From the NCBI RefSeq assembly GCF_054482595.1, contig NZ_CM137008.1: a stretch of DNA of 64,000 nt; one strand, written 5' to 3'. The notes beneath the pieces are model-generated. The model was given only the letters and a program-made list of their open reading frames with translations, ran no database searches and was not told where the DNA came from. A program made the position numbers and the translations under genes. Every line of letters begins with the position of its first letter. Positions within the stretch are counted from its first letter, which is position 1. Shown piece by piece: positions 2,492 through 13,487 of the stretch.

Positions 2492-2750
2492 GTGGTTTGT
2501 CCCCTTTTTGCCGCGGTTATAAAGGGGATAGCCAACAATAACCCCACGACTCATCTCAATTATCTCGTCACGACCAGGCAAAGCCCCAGCCCGGTCTCTT
2601 GCCGTCGCGTTCACGCCTGAATGACTTCTCCTGAACTTAAGTCTCAGACCTATTTGGCCGGTAATCCCTCTCAAATTTGCTCCTTTTGCGTTCAGCCTTC
2701 CATCAACCTGTAACAGAACCAGCCATTTTCTGCGTAATTGTGATCTGAGT

Positions 2751-2782
2751 TGTAAAACGCAGATCATTATCTGTGTTTTACA
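2751..2782. promoter_or_regulatory. 32-bp near-perfect palindrome (tgtaaaacgcagatca / ttatctgtgttttaca) about 80 bp upstream of ydjL; candidate operator
   Basis: 14 of 16 positions are self-complementary; outer 8-bp arms TGTAAAAC/GTTTTACA are perfect. No flanking T-run, so unlikely to be a terminator. Confidence 0.4.
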
Positions 2783-2860: not shown

Positions 2861-3937
2861 ATGAAAGCACTGGCTCGGTTTGGCAAAGCCTTTGGCGGCT
2901 ACAAGATGATTGATGTCCCACAACCCATGTGTGGCCCGGAAGATGTAGTGATTGAAATTAAAGCCGCGGCAATCTGCGGCGCAGACATGAAGCACTACAA
3001 TGTCGATAGCGGTTCTGATGAGTTTAACTCTATCCGCGGCCATGAGTTCGCAGGTTGTATTGCGCAGGTTGGTGAAAAAGTCAAAGACTGGAAAGTGGGG
3101 CAACGCGTCGTATCGGATAACAGCGGTCACGTTTGCGGCGTTTGTCCGGCCTGTGAACAAGGTGATTTTCTGTGTTGTACAGAAAAAGTAAACCTTGGTC
3201 TGGATAATAATACCTGGGGCGGTGGTTTTTCCAAATATTGTCTGGTTCCTGGTGAAATTCTCAAAATTCATCGTCATGCGTTGTGGGAAATCCCTGATGG
3301 TGTTGATTATGAGGACGCAGCCGTACTTGACCCTATCTGTAATGCCTACAAATCCATCGCGCAGCAATCGAAATTCCTTCCTGGTCAGGATGTGGTCGTC
3401 ATCGGCACTGGCCCACTCGGGCTGTTCTCCGTACAAATGGCGCGAATTATGGGGGCGGTAAATATCGTCGTCGTTGGTCTGCAAGAAGATGTGGCGGTCC
3501 GCTTCCCGGTTGCAAAAGAACTGGGTGCGACGGCAGTAGTAAATGGTTCTACCGAAGATGTGGTGGCGCGCTGCCAGCAAATTTGTGGCAAAGACAATCT
3601 GGGACTGGTGATTGAATGCTCCGGTGCCAATATCGCACTGAAACAAGCCATCGAAATGCTCCGCCCGAACGGGGAAGTTGTACGCGTTGGAATGGGCTTC
3701 AAACCTCTTGATTTCTCGATTAATGACATTACCGCCTGGAACAAAAGCATCATTGGGCATATGGCCTATGACTCCACCTCATGGCGTAACGCTATCAGGC
3801 TATTAGCCAGCGGCGCTATCAAAGTCAAACCGATGATCACGCATCGTATCGGCCTGTCGCAATGGCGCGAAGGGTTTGATGCGATGGTCGATAAAACCGC
3901 AATCAAAGTGATCATGACTTACGACTTTGATGAATAA
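2861..3937 (+). CDS. ydjL: Zn-dependent medium-chain alcohol/polyol dehydrogenase YdjL
   Basis: 358-aa ORF with GHEFAGCI zinc-ADH motif, Cys-rich structural zinc site (CGVCPACEQGDFLCC) and GTGPLG Rossmann motif. Confidence 0.9.
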   Translation: MKALARFGKAFGGYKMIDVPQPMCGPEDVVIEIKAAAICGADMKHYNVDSGSDEFNSIRGHEFAGCIAQVGEKVKDWKVGQRVVSDNSGHVCGVCPACEQGDFLCCTEKVNLGLDNNTWGGGFSKYCLVPGEILKIHRHALWEIPDGVDYEDAAVLDPICNAYKSIAQQSKFLPGQDVVVIGTGPLGLFSVQMARIMGAVNIVVVGLQEDVAVRFPVAKELGATAVVNGSTEDVVARCQQICGKDNLGLVIECSGANIALKQAIEMLRPNGEVVRVGMGFKPLDFSINDITAWNKSIIGHMAYDSTSWRNAIRLLASGAIKVKPMITHRIGLSQWREGFDAMVDKTAIKVIMTYDFDE

Positions 3938-3963: not shown

Positions 3964-5343
3964 ATGGAACAGATAACAAAACCGCATTGTGGTGCACGGC
4001 TGGATCGCTTACCGGATTGCCGCTGGCATTCATCAATGTTTGCCATCGTCGCGTTTGGCTTGCTTGTCTGCTGGAGTAATGCCGTTGGTGGCTTGATCCT
4101 CGCGCAGCTGAAAGCGTTGGGCTGGACAGATAATTCCACCACAGCCACATTCTCAGCAATCACGACCGCCGGAATGTTTCTCGGTGCGCTGGTGGGCGGC
4201 ATCATTGGCGACAAAACCGGTCGCAGAAATGCGTTCATCCTCTATGAGGCCATTCATATTGCCTCGATGGTTGTCGGTGCTTTCTCACCGAATATGGATT
4301 TCCTTATTGCCTGCCGTTTTGTGATGGGAGTTGGGCTGGGAGCTTTACTGGTTACGCTGTTTGCTGGTTTCACCGAATATATGCCCGGTAGAAATCGTGG
4401 AACGTGGTCAAGTCGGGTTTCCTTTATTGGCAACTGGTCATATCCGCTCTGTTCATTGATAGCGATGGGACTCACGCCGCTGATTAGTGCAGAGTGGAAC
4501 TGGCGGGTACAACTGCTTATCCCTGCAATATTGTCGCTTATCGCTACGGCGCTGGCCTGGCGCTACTTTCCTGAATCCCCGCGCTGGCTGGAATCGCGCG
4601 GACGGTATCAGGAAGCCGAGAAAGTCATGCGGAGTATAGAAGAAGGCGTCATACGCCAGACAGGTAAACCTTTGCCGCCCGTGGTTATTGCTGATGACGG
4701 TAAAGCACCACAAGCGGTGCCATATTCAGCCTTACTGACAGGAGTATTACTGAAACGCGTGATATTAGGCTCTTGTGTGCTGATTGCCATGAACGTTGTG
4801 CAGTACACACTAATTAACTGGTTGCCAACGATATTCATGACCCAGGGGATTAATTTAAAAGACTCGATTGTTTTAAATACCATGAGTATGTTTGGCGCGC
4901 CATTTGGCATTTTTATTGCCATGCTGGTGATGGATAAAATTCCGCGTAAAACAATGGGTGTGGGGCTATTAATCCTGATTGCGGTGCTCGGATATATCTA
5001 TTCACTGCAAACCAGCATGTTGCTCATAACGTTGATTGGTTTCTTCCTGATTACTTTCGTCTATATGTACGTTTGCTATGCCTCGGCAGTGTATGTCCCT
5101 GAGATCTGGCCGACAGAGGCCAAACTCCGTGGCTCCGGTCTGGCGAATGCGGTAGGGCGAATCAGTGGTATTGCCGCACCTTATGCCGTTGCAGTGCTGC
5201 TCAGTAGTTATGGCGTTACGGGAGTCTTTATTCTTCTGGGGGCGGTTTCAATTATTGTCGCAATTGCTATCGCCACCATTGGAATCGAAACCAAAGGTGT
5301 CTCCGTTGAAAGTTTAAGTATTGATGCAGTAGCCAATAAATAA
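3964..5343 (+). CDS. ydjK: MFS-family transporter YdjK (sugar-porter-like)
   Basis: 459-aa hydrophobic ORF with MFS signature GDKTGRRNA after TM2 and a repeated 6+6 TM layout; starts 27 bp after ydjL. Confidence 0.88.
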   Translation: MEQITKPHCGARLDRLPDCRWHSSMFAIVAFGLLVCWSNAVGGLILAQLKALGWTDNSTTATFSAITTAGMFLGALVGGIIGDKTGRRNAFILYEAIHIASMVVGAFSPNMDFLIACRFVMGVGLGALLVTLFAGFTEYMPGRNRGTWSSRVSFIGNWSYPLCSLIAMGLTPLISAEWNWRVQLLIPAILSLIATALAWRYFPESPRWLESRGRYQEAEKVMRSIEEGVIRQTGKPLPPVVIADDGKAPQAVPYSALLTGVLLKRVILGSCVLIAMNVVQYTLINWLPTIFMTQGINLKDSIVLNTMSMFGAPFGIFIAMLVMDKIPRKTMGVGLLILIAVLGYIYSLQTSMLLITLIGFFLITFVYMYVCYASAVYVPEIWPTEAKLRGSGLANAVGRISGIAAPYAVAVLLSSYGVTGVFILLGAVSIIVAIAIATIGIETKGVSVESLSIDAVANK

Positions 5344-5359
5344 TACGGGTGGATTCAAA

Positions 5360-6403
5360 ATGAAAAATTCAAAAGCAATATTGCAGGTGCCGGGCACAAT
5401 GAAAATTATTTCAGCAGAAATACCAGTGCCTAAAGAAGATGAAGTTTTGATTAAAGTAGAATATGTCGGTATTTGTGGTTCAGATGTACATGGTTTTGAA
5501 TCAGGTCCGTTTATTCCGCCTAAAGACCCAAATCAAGAAATTGGCCTGGGTCATGAATGCGCCGGGACGGTTGTGGCTGTGGGAAGCCGCGTGCGCAAAT
5601 TTAAACCGGGGGATCGGGTAAATATCGAACCTGGCGTTCCTTGCGGTCACTGTCGTTACTGTCTGGAAGGCAAATATAACATCTGCCCGGACGTTGATTT
5701 TATGGCGACACAACCCAACTACCGCGGCGCATTAACGCACTATCTGTGTCATCCGGAGAGCTTTACTTACAAACTGCCCGACAATATGGACACGATGGAA
5801 GGGGCGCTGGTGGAGCCTGCCGCAGTCGGGATGCATGCCGCGATGCTGGCAGATGTTAAACCGGGTAAGAAGATAATTATTCTGGGAGCGGGTTGTATTG
5901 GTTTGATGACGTTGCAAGCGTGCAAATGCCTGGGAGCAACGGAAATTGCCGTCGTTGATGTGCTGGAAAAACGTCTGACAATGGCGGAACAGCTTGGTGC
6001 GACAGTGGTTATTAACGGCGCAAAAGAAGACACTATTGCACGCTGTCAGCAATTTACCGAAGACATGGGCGCAGATATTGTTTTCGAAACAGCGGGTTCT
6101 GCGGTCACCGTTAAACAGGCACCTTATCTGGTAATGCGCGGCGGTAAAATTATGATTGTTGGTACTGTACCCGGCGATTCGGCAATCAATTTCCTCAAAA
6201 TCAATCGCGAAGTCACTATCCAGACGGTATTCCGCTATGCCAATCGTTATCCGGTCACGATTGAAGCTATTTCTTCAGGGCGATTCGATGTGAAATCGAT
6301 GGTGACACATATTTACGATTACCGTGATGTACAACAGGCATTTGAAGAGTCGGTTAACAACAAACGCGACATTATTAAAGGCGTTATTAAGATTAGCGAT
6401 TAA
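5360..6403 (+). CDS. ydjJ: Zn-dependent alcohol/polyol dehydrogenase YdjJ
   Basis: 347-aa ORF; GHECAGTV zinc-ADH motif, CGHCRYCLEGKYNIC structural zinc site, GAGCIG Rossmann motif. Confidence 0.9.
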   Translation: MKNSKAILQVPGTMKIISAEIPVPKEDEVLIKVEYVGICGSDVHGFESGPFIPPKDPNQEIGLGHECAGTVVAVGSRVRKFKPGDRVNIEPGVPCGHCRYCLEGKYNICPDVDFMATQPNYRGALTHYLCHPESFTYKLPDNMDTMEGALVEPAAVGMHAAMLADVKPGKKIIILGAGCIGLMTLQACKCLGATEIAVVDVLEKRLTMAEQLGATVVINGAKEDTIARCQQFTEDMGADIVFETAGSAVTVKQAPYLVMRGGKIMIVGTVPGDSAINFLKINREVTIQTVFRYANRYPVTIEAISSGRFDVKSMVTHIYDYRDVQQAFEESVNNKRDIIKGVIKISD

Positions 6404-6423: not shown

Positions 6424-7260
6424 ATGCTCGCAGATATCAGATATTGGGAAAACGATGCCACAAATAAACGTTATGCTATTGCCCATTTTAATGTATGGAA
6501 TGCAGAAATGTTGATGGGCGTTATCGACGCAGCCGAAGAAGCGAAATCACCGGTTATTATTTCTTTTGGCACAGGTTTTGTCGGCAACACCTCATTTGAA
6601 GATTTCTCTCACATGATGGTATCAATGGCACAAAAAGCAACGGTGCCGGTAATAACTCATTGGGATCATGGTCGGAGTATGGAGATTATTCATAACGCCT
6701 GGGCTCATGGTATGAATTCATTAATGCGTGATGCTTCCGCATTTGATTTCGAAGAAAATATTCGCTTAACCAAAGAGGCTGTCGATTTCTTCCATCCGCT
6801 GGGTATTCCGGTAGAGGCGGAATTAGGGCATGTCGGTAATGAAACCGTTTATGAGGAAGCGCTGGCGGGCTATCACTATACCGATCCTGACCAGGCGGCT
6901 GAATTTGTTGAACGTACGGGCTGTGACTCATTGGCTGTCGCCATCGGCAACCAGCATGGGGTTTATACGTCAGAGCCACAATTGAACTTTGAGGTCGTCA
7001 AACGCGTACGCGATGCCGTGTCTGTTCCGCTGGTTTTGCATGGCGCATCGGGGATCAGTGATGCCGACATTAAAACTGCAATTTCGTTGGGTATCGCGAA
7101 AATCAACATCCATACGGAGCTCTGTCAGGCCGCAATGGTCGCAGTGAAAGAAAACCAGGATCAGCCTTTCCTGCATTTAGAACGTGAAGTACGTAAAGCT
7201 GTAAAAGAACGGGCATTGGAAAAAATTAAACTGTTCGGTTCTGATGGCAAAGCGGAATAA
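6424..7260 (+). CDS. ydjI: Class II ketose-bisphosphate aldolase family protein YdjI
   Basis: 278-aa ORF recognised as a GatY/KbaY/FbaA-like class II aldolase (HxDH and His-rich metal site). Confidence 0.88.
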   Translation: MLADIRYWENDATNKRYAIAHFNVWNAEMLMGVIDAAEEAKSPVIISFGTGFVGNTSFEDFSHMMVSMAQKATVPVITHWDHGRSMEIIHNAWAHGMNSLMRDASAFDFEENIRLTKEAVDFFHPLGIPVEAELGHVGNETVYEEALAGYHYTDPDQAAEFVERTGCDSLAVAIGNQHGVYTSEPQLNFEVVKRVRDAVSVPLVLHGASGISDADIKTAISLGIAKINIHTELCQAAMVAVKENQDQPFLHLEREVRKAVKERALEKIKLFGSDGKAE

Positions 7261-7264
7261 TGAT

Positions 7265-8212
7265 ATGGATAATCTCGACGTTATTTGTATAGGTGCCGCT
7301 ATTGTTGATATTCCATTGCAACCGGTCAGTAAAAATATCTTTGATGTGGATTCTTATCCTCTTGAAAGAATCGCAATGACCACCGGGGGTGATGCAATAA
7401 ATGAAGCAACAATTATTTCTCGTCTGGGCCATCGTACAGCATTAATGAGGCGTGTTGGTAAAGATGCCGCAGGACAATTTATTCTCGACCATTGCCGCAA
7501 AGAGAATATTGATATTCAAAGCCTGAAACAGGACGTCAGCATAGATACCTCTATTAATGTTGGACTGGTGACGGAGGATGGCGAGCGGACGTTTGTCACA
7601 AACCGTAACGGCAGTCTGTGGAAATTGAATATTGACGATGTTGATTTTGCTCGGTTTTCCCAGGCAAAATTATTATCACTGGCCAGTATTTTCAACAGTC
7701 CACTATTGGATGGTAAAGCGCTAACAGAAATTTTTACGCAAGCTAAAGCCCGGCAGATGATTATCTGTGCCGATATGATCAAACCGCGGTTGAATGAAAC
7801 GCTGGATGATATTTGCGAAGCATTGAGTTATGTCGATTATCTGTTTCCTAATTATGCCGAGGCAAAATTACTCACCGGGAAAGAGACACTGGATGAAATT
7901 GCTGACTGCTTTCTTGCGTGCGGCGTAAAAACGGTGGTGATTAAAACGGGTAAAGACGGCTGCTTTATCAAGCGTGGTGACATGACGATGAAGGTGCCGG
8001 CGGTCGCAGGAATAACCGCCATCGACACCATTGGCGCGGGCGATAACTTTGCTTCAGGTTTTATTGCGGCACTGTTAGAAGGCAAAAATCTGCGTGAATG
8101 CGCACGCTTTGCCAATGCAACGGCGGCTATCTCGGTTCTAAGCGTCGGTGCCACCACCGGCGTAAAAAACAGAAAGCTGGTCGAACAATTGCTGGAAGAA
8201 TACGAAGGATAA
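7265..8212 (+). CDS. ydjH: PfkB-family carbohydrate kinase YdjH
   Basis: ORF 7244-8212; start placed at MDNLDVICIGAAIVD (315 aa); C-terminal GAGDNFASGF ribokinase/PfkB motif. Confidence 0.88.
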   Translation: MDNLDVICIGAAIVDIPLQPVSKNIFDVDSYPLERIAMTTGGDAINEATIISRLGHRTALMRRVGKDAAGQFILDHCRKENIDIQSLKQDVSIDTSINVGLVTEDGERTFVTNRNGSLWKLNIDDVDFARFSQAKLLSLASIFNSPLLDGKALTEIFTQAKARQMIICADMIKPRLNETLDDICEALSYVDYLFPNYAEAKLLTGKETLDEIADCFLACGVKTVVIKTGKDGCFIKRGDMTMKVPAVAGITAIDTIGAGDNFASGFIAALLEGKNLRECARFANATAAISVLSVGATTGVKNRKLVEQLLEEYEG

Positions 8213-8221
8213 TGAAGGCAA

Positions 8222-9202
8222 ATGAAAAAGATACCTTTAGGCACAACGGATATTACGCTTTCGCGAATGGGGTTGGGGACATGGGCCATTGGCGGCGGTC
8301 CTGCATGGAATGGCGATCTCGATCGGCAAATATGTATTGATACGATTCTTGAAGCCCATCGTTGCGGCATTAATCTGATTGATACTGCACCAGGATATAA
8401 TTTTGGCAATAGTGAAGTTATCGTCGGTCAGGCGTTAAAAAAACTGCCCCGTGAACAGGTTGTAGTAGAAACCAAATGCGGCATTGTCTGGGAACGAAAA
8501 GGAAGTTTATTCAACAAAGTTGGCGATCGGCAGTTGTATAAAAACCTTTCCCCGGAATCTATCCGCGAAGAGGTAGAAGCCAGCTTGCAACGTCTGGGTA
8601 TTGATTACATCGATATCTACATGACGCACTGGCAGTCGGTGCCGCCATTTTATACGCCGATCGCTGAAACTGTCGCAGTGCTTAATGAGTTAAAGGCTGA
8701 AGGGAAAATTCGCGCTATAGGCGCTGCTAACGTCGATGCCGACCATATCCGCGAGTATCTGCAATATGGTGAACTGGATATTATTCAGGCGAAATACAGT
8801 ATCCTCGACCGGGCAATGGAAAACGAACTGCTGCCGCTATGTCGTGATAATGGCATTGTGGTTCAGGTTTATTCCCCGCTAGAGCAGGGATTGTTGACCG
8901 GCACCATCACTCGTGATTACGTTCCGGGCGGCGCTCGGGCAAATAAAGTCTGGTTCCAGCGTGAAAACATGCTGAAAGTGATTGATATGCTTGAACAGTG
9001 GCAGCCACTTTGTGCTCGATATCAGTGCACAATTCCCACTCTGGCACTGGCGTGGATATTAAAACAGAGTGATTTAATCTCCATTCTTAGTGGGGCTACT
9101 GCACCGGAACAGGTACGCGAAAATGTCGCAGCACTGAATATCAACTTATCGGATGCAGACGCAACATTGATGAGGGAAATGGCAGAGGCCCTGGAGCGTT
9201 AA
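8222..9202 (+). CDS. ydjG: Aldo-keto reductase YdjG
   Basis: 326-aa ORF with AKR fold hallmarks (IDTAPGY, catalytic tetrad context); starts 10 bp after ydjH. Confidence 0.88.
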   Translation: MKKIPLGTTDITLSRMGLGTWAIGGGPAWNGDLDRQICIDTILEAHRCGINLIDTAPGYNFGNSEVIVGQALKKLPREQVVVETKCGIVWERKGSLFNKVGDRQLYKNLSPESIREEVEASLQRLGIDYIDIYMTHWQSVPPFYTPIAETVAVLNELKAEGKIRAIGAANVDADHIREYLQYGELDIIQAKYSILDRAMENELLPLCRDNGIVVQVYSPLEQGLLTGTITRDYVPGGARANKVWFQRENMLKVIDMLEQWQPLCARYQCTIPTLALAWILKQSDLISILSGATAPEQVRENVAALNINLSDADATLMREMAEALER

Positions 9203-9228
9203 ATACTCAACACGATTCACCTCTGTTT

Positions 9229-9256
9229 CTGTGAAAACTGTGATGAAAATCTGTGA
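9229..9256. promoter_or_regulatory. Three direct CTGTGA repeats (starts 9229, 9238, 9251) upstream of ydjF; candidate operator or CRP half-sites
   Basis: Read directly: ctgtgaaaa / ctgtgatgaaaat / ctgtgattcaaa, between the ydjG stop and the ydjF GTG start. Confidence 0.3.
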
Positions 9257-9338
9257 TTCAAACAGGTTATTTTGAAAGTAAACATCGGTTATGCGATAAT
9301 CGCGCTAATGTGATGTAAAAAGATACAGGGGTGTAATC

Positions 9339-10097
9339 GTGGCGGCAAAAGACAGGATTCAGGCAATTAAGCAAATGGTTGCCAACGATAAAAAGGTGAC
9401 AGTCTCAAATTTGAGTGGGATTTTTCAGGTAACCGAAGAAACCATTCGCCGCGATCTTGAGAAGCTGGAAGATGAAGGCTTTTTGACCAGAACCTATGGT
9501 GGTGCTGTTTTAAATACAGCGATGTTGACGGAGAATATCCATTTTTATAAGCGCGCTTCATCGTTTTATGAAGAGAAGCAGCTTATTGCACGCAAGGCAC
9601 TACCCTTTATCGACAATAAAACCACCATGGCAGCCGATTCCAGTAGTACCGTAATGGAATTGCTCAAATTGTTACAGGACCGTAGTGACCTGACGTTGCT
9701 AACCAACTCGGCGGAAGCGATTCATGTTCTGGCTCAGTCAGAAATTAAAGTCGTTTCAACGGGTGGGGAACTAAACAAAAATACACTTTCACTGCAAGGA
9801 AGAATTACTAAAGAGATCATCAGCCGCTACCATGTCGATATCATGGTAATGAGTTGTAAAGGTCTTGATATTAACAGCGGCGCGCTGGACTCTAATGAAG
9901 CGGAAGCTGAAATCAAAAAGACAATGATCCGTCAGGCGACAGAAGTTGCGTTATTGGTTGATCACTCTAAGTTTGATCGCAAAGCTTTTGTCCAGTTAGC
10001 TGACTTTAGTCATATTAATTACATAATAACTGATAAATCACCGGGTGCAGAGTGGATAGCATTTTGCAAAGACAATAATATCCAGCTGGTGTGGTAA
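9339..10097 (+). CDS. ydjF: DeoR-family transcriptional regulator YdjF (GTG start)
   Basis: 252-aa ORF; N-terminal HTH (TVSNLSGIFQVTEETIRRDLEKLE) and DeoR C-terminal sugar-phosphate-binding domain; initiation codon is GTG. Confidence 0.88.
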   Translation: MAAKDRIQAIKQMVANDKKVTVSNLSGIFQVTEETIRRDLEKLEDEGFLTRTYGGAVLNTAMLTENIHFYKRASSFYEEKQLIARKALPFIDNKTTMAADSSSTVMELLKLLQDRSDLTLLTNSAEAIHVLAQSEIKVVSTGGELNKNTLSLQGRITKEIISRYHVDIMVMSCKGLDINSGALDSNEAEAEIKKTMIRQATEVALLVDHSKFDRKAFVQLADFSHINYIITDKSPGAEWIAFCKDNNIQLVW

Positions 10098-10214
10098 TTT
10101 AAGCACACGTTGTCAATATTATTTGTTCCTGCGCCTGGAAATAAAATGATGATAAAGATGCGGCAAGTGAATTTGCCGCAATTGCTACCTTTTTTAGCAA
10201 ATCCGAGGCACCCA

Positions 10215-11573
10215 ATGGAACAATATGATCAAATTGGCGCAAGACTGGACCGCTTGCCTTTGGCCCGGTTTCATTATCGTATATTTGGTATTATAAGCTT
10301 TAGTCTGTTATTAACAGGGTTTTTGAGTTACTCCGGTAATGTCGTCTTAGCAAAGCTGGTAAGCAATGGATGGTCAAATAATTTCCTCAATGCCGCCTTT
10401 ACCTCGGCATTAATGTTTGGTTATTTCATCGGCTCTCTTACCGGTGGGTTCATCGGTGATTACTTTGGGCGGCGCAGGGCGTTTCGCATAAATCTTCTCA
10501 TCGTCGGTATTGCTGCAACAGGGGCCGCTTTTGTCCCTGATATGTACTGGCTCATCTTCTTTCGCTTCCTGATGGGAACAGGAATGGGGGCGCTGATTAT
10601 GGTTGGCTATGCCTCATTTACGGAGTTTATCCCCGCGACGGTGCGTGGAAAATGGTCCGCGCGGCTCTCATTTGTTGGTAACTGGTCGCCCATGCTGTCT
10701 GCGGCGATAGGTGTGGTGGTTATCGCTTTTTTTAGTTGGCGGATAATGTTTCTGCTGGGTGGTATTGGCATACTGTTAGCCTGGTTTCTTTCAGGTAAAT
10801 ACTTTATTGAGTCGCCACGATGGCTGGCAGGGAAAGGGCAAATCGCAGGTGCAGAAAGCCAACTTCGTGAAGTAGAGCAGCAAATTGAAAGAGAGAAGAG
10901 TATTCGTTTACCCCCGCTTACTTCGTATCAGAGCAACAGCAAGGTTAAAGTAATCAAGGGTACTTTCTGGCTCCTGTTTAAAGGTGAAATGTTACGACGT
11001 ACATTAGTCGCGATTACTGTTTTAATTGCAATGAACATTTCGCTTTATACCATCACCGTATGGATACCGACCATATTTGTTAACTCCGGCATTGATGTCG
11101 ATAAATCAATATTAATGACCGCTGTTATTATGATTGGCGCTCCGGTAGGAATATTTATTGCGGCATTAATTATTGATCATTTTCCTCGTCGGTTATTTGG
11201 CTCCACCTTACTTATTATTATTGCCGTGTTAGGCTATATCTATTCAATTCAGACTACAGAGTGGGCGATTTTAATCTATGGCCTGGTGATGATATTCTTT
11301 TTATACATGTATGTTTGCTTCGCGTCGGCGGTTTATATCCCGGAGCTTTGGCCAACGCATTTACGCCTGCGCGGTTCGGGTTTCGTTAATGCCGTCGGAC
11401 GGATCGTCGCAGTCTTCACGCCCTATGGCGTTGCGGCATTATTAACACATTATGGGTCGATCACGGTGTTTATGGTACTTGGTGTCATGTTATTGCTCTG
11501 TGCGCTGGTTCTCTCCATTTTTGGCATCGAAACGCGAAAGGTGTCGTTGGAAGAGATTTCTGAGGTGAATTAA
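10215..11573 (+). CDS. ydjE: MFS-family transporter YdjE
   Basis: ORF 10110-11573; start placed at MEQYDQIGARLDRL (452 aa); GDYFGRRRA MFS motif; paralogous in layout to YdjK. Confidence 0.85.
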   Translation: MEQYDQIGARLDRLPLARFHYRIFGIISFSLLLTGFLSYSGNVVLAKLVSNGWSNNFLNAAFTSALMFGYFIGSLTGGFIGDYFGRRRAFRINLLIVGIAATGAAFVPDMYWLIFFRFLMGTGMGALIMVGYASFTEFIPATVRGKWSARLSFVGNWSPMLSAAIGVVVIAFFSWRIMFLLGGIGILLAWFLSGKYFIESPRWLAGKGQIAGAESQLREVEQQIEREKSIRLPPLTSYQSNSKVKVIKGTFWLLFKGEMLRRTLVAITVLIAMNISLYTITVWIPTIFVNSGIDVDKSILMTAVIMIGAPVGIFIAALIIDHFPRRLFGSTLLIIIAVLGYIYSIQTTEWAILIYGLVMIFFLYMYVCFASAVYIPELWPTHLRLRGSGFVNAVGRIVAVFTPYGVAALLTHYGSITVFMVLGVMLLLCALVLSIFGIETRKVSLEEISEVN

Positions 11574-12317: not shown

Positions 12318-13334
12318 TTAATCATCTGGCGTCAGTTCGCCGCGCAGGTTTTGGCTCATGGCCTTGCGAATGGTTTCAGTATCCAGTTCCTGGCTAAGCA
12401 GGTAATGCAGTTTGGTTAGCGTGGCTTCTACAGTCATATCTGCACCGCCAATAACGCCAGCATGGGCGAGGGCGTTACCGGTGGCATAACCACCCATATT
12501 CACTTTACCGGACATACATTGTGTCAGGTTGACCACCACAATACCGCGATCGCTGGCTTCTTGTAATTCCTGCAGGAAGGCTTTGTTTTGTGGCGCATTA
12601 CCCACGCCATATGAGCGCAGAATCAATGCTTTCACCGGTTGGCGCAGAAAATTGCGCACGACGTCAGCAGAAATCCCTGGATAAATCGTCACTACGCCAA
12701 TTGGTTGTGGGGTGATTGGATGAACGATTAATTCCCCTTCACCGTGCGGGGCGGGTGGCGTATTCAAACGACGAATATGGATACCTGCTTCCAGTAACGG
12801 AGGAAGGTTTGGAGAGGCAAACGCATCAAAACCATCGGCATGGGCTTTGGTAGTGCGGTTGCCGCGATACAATCGGTTATTGAAAAAGAGCGTTACTTCG
12901 TTGATCGGATAATTCGCCGCAACGTACAACGCATTCAGCAGATTAATTTGTCCGTCAGAGCGTAACTCAGCCAGCGGGATTTGTGACCCTGTCACAATGA
13001 CCGGTTTACCGAGATTTTCGAGCATGAACGACAGCGCAGAGGCGGTATATGCCATCGTATCGGTGCCGTGCAGAATGACAAAACCATCATAGTCGTCATA
13101 GTGCGCTTTAATATCTTCAGCAATATGCTGCCAGTCTTCCGGCGTCATGTCTGAAGAATCCATCAGCGGCGTATATTCATGAATGGTGAAATCTGGCATC
13201 TCCGGACGATGGAATTCCGGCATCAGCGCCAGTTGGCGTTGTAGATGACCTGACACCGGTATATAACCCTGCTCGGAACGCTGCATCCCGATGGTCCCGC
13301 CCGTGTAGGCGACGTAAATTGATTTCTTTTGCAT
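12318..13334 (-). CDS. ansA: Cytoplasmic L-asparaginase I
   Basis: Asparaginase signature YTGGTIGM near the N-terminus; start placed at MQKKSIYVAYTGG (338 aa), not the upstream in-frame Met of the 385-aa ORF. Confidence 0.9.
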   Translation of the reverse strand: MQKKSIYVAYTGGTIGMQRSEQGYIPVSGHLQRQLALMPEFHRPEMPDFTIHEYTPLMDSSDMTPEDWQHIAEDIKAHYDDYDGFVILHGTDTMAYTASALSFMLENLGKPVIVTGSQIPLAELRSDGQINLLNALYVAANYPINEVTLFFNNRLYRGNRTTKAHADGFDAFASPNLPPLLEAGIHIRRLNTPPAPHGEGELIVHPITPQPIGVVTIYPGISADVVRNFLRQPVKALILRSYGVGNAPQNKAFLQELQEASDRGIVVVNLTQCMSGKVNMGGYATGNALAHAGVIGGADMTVEATLTKLHYLLSQELDTETIRKAMSQNLRGELTPDD

Positions 13335-13487
13335 GATATTGATATGAATGATATCGAAAGAGCAAAAGTATATACGTGAGGCAGGGGGAGCGCACCTGAT
13401 ACTATGCGGATAAGGAAATATGGGGCGAGACAGCGGGAAGAGGATTAAAAATATGGCCGACGATCTGTCGGCCACTCAGTACAAGAC

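Follow-up and report, generated by a model that had tools for sequence, protein, structure and literature searches.

Local regulators of the DeoR/GlpR family, such as GlpR, AgaR, SrlR, and FucR, control an adjacent sugar operon as well as their own gene. Some members of the family, e.g., AgaR and SugR, use direct repeats, and FucR is an activator. In class I CRP promoters of the lac type, CRP is centred at -61.5. In IS10/Tn10, a segment located upstream of the element's own promoter is complementary to the ribosome-binding site, and the occluding helix is possible only in transcripts entering from upstream; IS10 read-through transcripts reportedly sequester the transposase translation signals. 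We show here how the control region of the E. coli gene ydjF compares with these three kinds of systems.

We analysed a 64-kb stretch of DNA (hereafter, the window) that carries the E. coli ydjLKJIHG-ydjF-ydjE cluster, all genes of which lie on the + strand (Table 1). The cluster includes an L-glycero-L-galacto-octuluronate kinase. Its operon promoter is active in the mouse gut, with a regulation described as unknown (2019), and YdjF was listed as uncharacterized as late as 2016. The ydjG-ydjF region (8700-9900) has no match in 1,097 of 5,426 complete E. coli genomes, so the cluster is accessory within the species. Like the systems governed by GlpR, AgaR, SrlR, or FucR, the ydj cluster has a DeoR-family gene at the end of a set of genes for sugar-acid catabolism, and it presents a conserved box at two places, before the operon and before the regulator gene, this box being palindromic at the operon promoter. 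It differs from the known DeoR/GlpR-family systems in three respects, i.e., the candidate operator, ATCTGTG...TTTTACA, is previously undescribed; the box is located upstream of the -35 hexamer and not over the core promoter; and YdjF, whose best NCBIfam matches are GlpR, AgaR, SrlR, and FucR, falls below the equivalog cut-off of every one of them.

Three copies of the hexamer CTGTGA lie in this control region. The reading that we prefer, to which we give a probability of about one half, is that these copies arose by coincidence, from distinct elements superimposed in the control region upstream of the ydjF sigma-70 promoter.

The three CTGTGA copies and the ydjF promoter

An earlier note on this locus had described three phased CTGTGA direct repeats in front of ydjF and had proposed that they could be an autoregulatory operator of YdjF or a catabolite-control element. 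The three copies are confirmed from the sequence: they are found within 28 bp (starts 9229, 9238, and 9251), 83-110 bp 5' of the ydjF GTG at 9339, in a ydjG-ydjF spacer of 136 bp that is identical to that of a K-12 substrain. The term "phased" does not hold, their start-to-start spacings being unequal (9 and 13 bp). With a further TGTGA at 9309, the spacer contains four of these pentamers (9230, 9239, 9252, and 9309), all in the same orientation, versus 1.2 half-sites per kb in the window. CTGTGA itself is not enriched in the window, with 18 matches on both strands versus 24.9 expected. At the + strand rate of CTGTGA, the expected number of such triplets is 6e-5. When any hexamer is considered, three non-overlapping occurrences within 28 bp are obtained in 30% of Markov-1 simulated 64-kb windows (mean of 0.38 per window), and two are observed in the real window. 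Thus, once this look-elsewhere effect is allowed for, the CTGTGA triplet is only mildly unusual. The sole other cluster of this kind in the window consists of three TGATAT (13334-13354), which abut the ansA start codon on the opposite strand.

Downstream of the copies, the ydjF promoter (TTGAAA-17-GATAAT) matches the sigma-70 promoter at 10 of 12 positions. The same hexamers were reported as a constitutive promoter for ydjF from RpoD holoenzyme SELEX (Shimada 2014, PMC3946193), and both are conserved across genera in 22 orthologous spacers. The predicted start site falls at about 9307-9308, which places the CTGTGA copies at about -78 to -51; no mapped start site was found in the ROSE supplement or in a part of the Cappable-seq supplement. 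Scanning for terminator-like sites gave none in 9000-9500, including between ydjG and ydjF, so transcription of the ydjLKJIHG operon is likely to read through into ydjF. In the following spacer, between ydjF and ydjE (10160-10195), we observed the hairpin GCGGCAA-GTGAAT-TTGCCGC, followed 10 nt later by a T6 run. Most of the orthologous ydjF-ydjE spacers have a G+C-rich stem at the same place, with different loops; the structure could serve either to terminate ydjF transcription or as a regulatory element.

Two other elements were considered in the same region and rejected. A LexA box requires an N8 spacing, and the CTGT-N7-ACAG found at 9251-9265 has the wrong one. A published degenerate LexA site is located instead at 9311-9330, where TGATGTAAAAAGATACAGGG is the reverse complement of the site proposed from LexA ChIP-chip data for the unconventional target "ydjF, ydjK" (PMC3542263); this site falls 3' of the predicted start site and 5' of the start codon, and genera other than Escherichia do not conserve it. 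The second element, a possible leader peptide of 10 codons (9243-9275, MKICDSNRLF), has no Shine-Dalgarno sequence, takes its ATG from the non-conserved copy 2, and is found in E. coli only.

Table 1. Features of the ydj cluster and of its control regions (positions in the window)
Feature	Positions	Strand	Description
TGTGATC upstream of ydjL	2739-2745	+	6/7 columns invariant across genera; resembles a CRP half-site
ydjL palindrome, 32 bp	2751-2782	+	TGTAAAACGCAGAT-CATT-ATCTGTGTTTTACA; right half matches box 2
ydjL	2861-3937	+	
ydjK	3964-5343	+	
ydjJ	5360-6403	+	
ydjI	6424-7260	+	
ydjH	7265-8212	+	
ydjG	8222-9202	+	
Helix 5' arm (predicted)	9211-9230	+	core ACCUCUGUUUC; just 3' of the ydjG stop; only in read-through transcripts from ydjG
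Conserved box 1	9219-9237	+	ACCTCTGTTTCTGTGAAAA; alignment form ACCTCTGTTTCTGTGTAAAA
CTGTGA copy 1	9229-9234	+	CTGTGT in other genera; 3' edge of conserved box 1
CTGTGA copy 2	9238-9243	+	E. coli-specific; left half of published CRP box
Weak CRP box	9239-9254	+	TGTGATGAAAATCTGT; copy 2 plus TCTGT of copy 3; 7/10 core positions
Conserved box 2	9247-9268	+	AAATCTGTGATTCAAACAGGTT; alignment form AAATCTGTGATTCAGACATGTT; candidate operator of a ydj-specific regulator
CTGTGA copy 3	9251-9256	+	invariant core of conserved box 2
ydjF sigma-70 promoter	9272-9300	+	TTGAAA (9272-9277)-17-GATAAT (9295-9300), TG before -10; promoter scan
Helix 3' arm (predicted)	9321-9341	+	ydjF Shine-Dalgarno region and GUG start
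ydjF	9339-10097	+	GTG start; DeoR/GlpR-family regulator (HTH_DeoR and DeoRC domains)
ydjE	10215-11573	+	

A conserved box in front of ydjF and ydjL

To follow the copies through evolution, we used 22 loci recovered by a YdjF scan, with one genome per species, 20 of which have the full ydjLKJIHGFE cluster. They belong to the genera Escherichia, Citrobacter, Klebsiella, Raoultella, Budvicia, Yokenella, Intestinirhabdus, Symbiopectobacterium, and Serratia. Once aligned, the spacers display a succession of conserved blocks, i.e., box 1, a variable stretch of 9-10 bp, box 2, the -35, the -10, and the Shine-Dalgarno region. The three CTGTGA copies behave differently in this alignment. In copy 3, the first three bases (CTG, 9251-9253) do not vary among the 22 sequences, and each of the last three (TGA, 9254-9256) reaches a conservation of at least 90%. 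For copy 1, at least 90% of the orthologs have a T at 9234, which gives CTGTGT. Copy 2, located in the variable stretch, has no conserved column among the 22 non-E. coli sequences; in the nearest Escherichia (E. whittamii and Escherichia sp. E1V33), its position is occupied by CTATGA or CGATGA, CTATGA being the form of E. whittamii. Within E. coli, all three copies are intact in five of the six sampled variants, the sixth being a frameshifted assembly. As a unit, then, the three direct repeats of the earlier note do not stand: the copies are unevenly spaced, conservation is lacking for the middle one, and the last base of copy 1 differs elsewhere. Box 1 is itself composite, its 5' part being the anti-Shine-Dalgarno core discussed below and its 3' part, TGTG(A/T)AAA, aligning with a similar box upstream of ydjL. 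The sole ortholog with a mutated box 2 (TGCTA for TGTGA) is that of Klebsiella michiganensis (locus L017, 7850-8012), which also has a disrupted -10 and a truncated ydjK match that begins at residue 202; this suggests a relaxed constraint in a decaying cluster.

Box 2 contains a 17-mer, ATCTGTGATTCA (9249-9265), whose core is copy 3. We found that ATCTGTGNTTNANA has exactly two exact matches in the 64-kb window, at 2769 and 9249, and that in the 22 orthologous loci all of its exact matches but one are at the ydjF or ydjL promoter positions. Moreover, the two sites are in the same register: at both loci, the 17-mer ends 6 bp before a TTGA hexamer, i.e., TTGAAA at 9272, the ydjF -35, and TTGACC at 2792-2797 for the 17-mer of the ydjL palindrome (2769-2785). 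When the upstream regions of ydjF and ydjL are aligned on this hexamer, they have a 16/22 block in common. A 16/22 match to the block is reached by just 10 of 127,872 window segments, and among the 169 other TTGA-anchored segments, the ydjL segment alone attains at least 14. Taken as a 22-mer in the E. coli sequence alone, box 2 has about 20 other sites in the window that are as close to it as the ydjL site, and the operator case rests on register and conservation.

At ydjL, the arms of the 32-bp palindrome (2751-2764/2769-2782) are 93% complementary and are conserved across genera. A second palindrome (2741-2751/2756-2766) overlaps it, and both are just 5' of the conserved TTGACC, which we regard as the putative ydjL -35; the ydjL -10 is weak and below the scan threshold. 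The larger palindrome was also flagged as terminator-like by the scan, with just four G-C pairs. In Citrobacter FP75 and C. gillenii, the inner 17-mer keeps complementary arms that use another base pair, ATCTTT...AAAGAT versus ATCTGT...ACAGAT in E. coli. Serratia H1w was rejected as an independent second promoter, its cluster being rearranged and the motif being found upstream of ydjF only.

YdjF carries the domains of its family (HTH_DeoR, E = 2.9e-17; DeoRC, E = 2.4e-49). A DeoR-family protein encoded in the cluster, together with a box that is conserved and in register at ydjL, fits a cluster-specific operator, and we infer that the regulator of the cluster, a DeoR-family protein that is most likely YdjF itself, has its candidate operators in box 2 and in the ydjL palindrome. 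Thus, the proposal of a YdjF autoregulatory operator gains some support for the box built on copy 3, through the family of the protein, the cross-genus conservation, and the in-register match at ydjL, and loses it for three copies acting together, given the 9- and 13-bp spacings and the non-conserved copy 2. The position of the box, upstream of the -35, is an unusual place for a simple repressor. In the published literature searched, we found no report of DNA binding by YdjF and no earlier description of the candidate operator or of the anti-Shine-Dalgarno helix presented below.

A predicted anti-Shine-Dalgarno helix

The ydjF Shine-Dalgarno region has its complement in ACCTCTGTTTC, a conserved sequence at the 5' side of box 1. 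In K. oxytoca, ACCTCTGTTTC is the exact reverse complement of GAAACAGAGGT, the Shine-Dalgarno region located 93 nt downstream, with a core of 11/11. The E. coli read-through RNA has a predicted fold of -44.8 kcal/mol (z = -4.94), in which 9211-9230 pairs with 9321-9341, and the probability of the core helix is about 1.0 in transcripts of 148-551 nt. By folding, the Shine-Dalgarno and start bases are free at 0.00 in the read-through RNA versus 0.36-0.46 in RNA beginning at the predicted start site. The helix is present in the MFE fold of all 14 orthologs that were folded, RNAalifold returns a consensus helix of 12 bp, and 94.1% of the cells are paired in register versus 48-64% with a slid partner. 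There is little covariation, with changes on both sides in only 2 pairs and 3 cells; a flank-swap test gave p = 0.02, a value that owes to Serratia, Symbiopectobacterium, and E. coli. In Serratia, the occlusion is retained with another register (GTTTACCTCTG/CAGGGGTAAAC), and in E. coli and Symbiopectobacterium the helix reaches the start codon, through sequences that differ between the two. A search of Rfam gave nothing relevant in 9100-9450.

As the 5' arm precedes the ydjF promoter and its predicted start site, the helix could form only in read-through transcripts. Hence a possible function, which we put forward tentatively and at somewhat less than even odds: the conserved segment 9211-9230 would act as an anti-Shine-Dalgarno, blocking ydjF translation in the operon read-through mRNA, while transcripts from ydjF's own promoter would be translated, so that synthesis of the regulator would be insulated from induction of the operon. 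This arrangement resembles that of IS10/Tn10, whose protection from external promoters is credited to Davis, Simons and Kleckner 1985, as cited in PMC13181058. The two cases share a complement to the ribosome-binding site that is placed 5' of the gene's own promoter, and an occluding helix that would be possible only in transcripts entering from upstream. Unlike IS10, which is a mobile element, ydjF is a chromosomal regulator gene located downstream of its own operon, and the entire promoter lies inside its predicted helix, which bridges about 95 nt. Copy 1 contributes just 2 nt to the helix, which is thus a neighbouring feature and does not explain the repeats.

The CRP box, the competing readings and their meaning

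The gene ydjF was reported as a new CRP target on the basis of a cAMP-CRP SELEX-chip peak in the ydjG-ydjF spacer (Shimada 2011, PMC3105977). The CRP box given for ydjF in Table S3 of PMC3105977, ACAGATTTTCATCACA, is the reverse complement of positions 9239-9254 of the window. We scored CRP sites on the 10 core positions of the palindromic consensus TGTGA-N6-TCACA. The positive control, TGTGATTTTCATCACG at 1630-1645, is a near-consensus box (9/10 core) that corresponds to the known gapA/msrB CRP site in the PMC3105977 table. At ydjF, 9239-9254 and 9230-9245 each reach 7/10 core positions, with a perfect left half and a right half of 2/5. This is the level of chance, as 220 matches of at least 7/10 are found in the window versus 224.6 expected. 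Canonical CRP sites on copy 1 or copy 3 were rejected, with right halves of 2/5 and 0/5, respectively.

The ydjF box resembles class I promoters of the lac type by its perfect left half-site (TGTGA), by its predicted centre (9246.5, i.e., -60.5/-61.5 from the predicted start site at 9307/9308, a class I position), and by the cAMP-dependent in vitro binding published for the spacer (PMC3105977). It differs from them by its right half (TCTGT versus TCACA), by an overall match at chance level, by its lack of conservation beyond E. coli, the left half (copy 2) being absent in 22/22 non-E. coli sequences, and in that neither in vivo CRP binding nor functional evidence was found, the supplement of a Crp ChIP-exo study having no ydj entry. 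Most simply, this would be a weak CRP site that is specific to E. coli and was made by the base changes behind copy 2. This box was already published; its origin in E. coli is recent. The catabolite-control element suggested earlier thus finds some support in the published peak and box, and is weakened by a match at chance level that depends on the E. coli-specific copy. Moreover, the CRP box and box 2 have 6 bp in common, which would force CRP and the box 2 protein to compete or cooperate.

Could catabolite control account for the whole region? In such a reading, the TGTGA half-sites (9230, 9239, 9252, and perhaps 9309) would recruit cAMP-CRP for class I activation, and no cluster-specific regulator would be involved. 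The SELEX-chip peak with its box, the density of TGTGA in the 136-bp spacer, and the position of the box centre all agree with it. In addition, ydjL, preceded by a single invariant TGTGATC, is not in the cAMP-CRP SELEX table (PMC3105977), so the extra half-sites may be what gives binding at ydjF. However, every candidate 16-mer has a poor right half and does not exceed 7/10, the half-sites are all in one orientation whereas CRP recognizes a palindrome, copy 2 is missing from the other genera and from the nearest Escherichia species, and the Crp ChIP-exo supplement gave no in vivo binding. The conservation of the 22 bp of box 2 and its match at ydjL are left unexplained, and we consider this reading unlikely, with a modest chance of being right. 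The same two observations bear on the opposite idea, that the triple repeat has no function and arose by chance in an A+T-rich spacer, its conserved parts being kept for promoter upstream contacts or for the RNA helix. Triplets of some hexamer are frequent in the simulated windows, CTGTGA is not enriched, and one copy is lineage-specific, as this idea would have it. Yet copy 3 is invariant across genera inside a 22-bp conserved block, this block is in register at the ydjL promoter region too, and CRP binds the spacer in vitro, which makes a functionless triplet quite unlikely.

The two remaining readings give the repeats a function of another kind. That the three CTGTGA are direct-repeat half-sites bound by a YdjF oligomer, after the operator proposal of the earlier note, would suit a member of the DeoR family, with AgaR and SugR as precedents for direct repeats, and conserved TCTGT(T/G) units do occur in one orientation at 9222, 9228, and 9250. 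These conserved direct units are, however, TCTGTK spaced 6 and 22 bp apart, and not CTGTGA; the CTGTGA copies themselves are unevenly spaced, with a copy 2 that is not conserved and a copy 1 that ends in T elsewhere, and the related units at ydjL are inverted repeats, so that we hold this model to be very unlikely. Finally, the repeats might act as RNA, within a structured ydjG-ydjF read-through transcript, and not as DNA sites. The stability of the predicted read-through fold is in line with this, the 5' arm of the conserved helix extends to 9230, and in E. coli, copy 3 and ACAG pair into a small hairpin. But copy 1 brings only its 2 nt to the helix, other genera have ACAT for ACAG and lack the copy 3 hairpin, and box 2 is conserved as sequence and not as pairing. 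Box 2 is also found upstream of ydjL, where no read-through from upstream is expected, and a role of the repeats as RNA seems most improbable.

We return to the overlay of separate elements. Copy 3 would be the core of the candidate operator of the cluster regulator, most probably bound by YdjF, which would then act on its own gene as well as on the ydjLKJIHG operon. Located upstream of the -35, such a box would fit an activator like FucR, or a repressor that blocks upstream contacts. Copy 2 is an E. coli-only change that, together with copy 3, makes the weak CRP box bound by cAMP-CRP in vitro; near -61, i.e., in a class I position, this box may add or strengthen catabolite control in E. coli. 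Copy 1 is the E. coli variant of the conserved CTGTGT, beside the conserved segment with the putative anti-Shine-Dalgarno. As a whole, the region is ordinary control DNA of the kind found upstream of promoters, with one conserved flank that probably works as RNA. The sequence itself, its conservation, the layout common to the two promoter regions, and the published in vitro binding of CRP and of RNA polymerase are established; the start site, the protein bound at box 2, and any effect in the cell are inferred.

An operator candidate common to two promoter regions, together with a dated CRP site, offers a small and directly testable regulatory model for the uncharacterized YdjF. It also calls for caution with SELEX-based CRP targets, as the published ydjF box depends on an E. 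coli-specific base change. Finally, the anti-Shine-Dalgarno helix, if true, would show how a regulator gene located downstream of its target operon, with no terminator between them, escapes co-induction, and it would give a chromosomal parallel to the way in which IS10 defends itself against transcription from outside.
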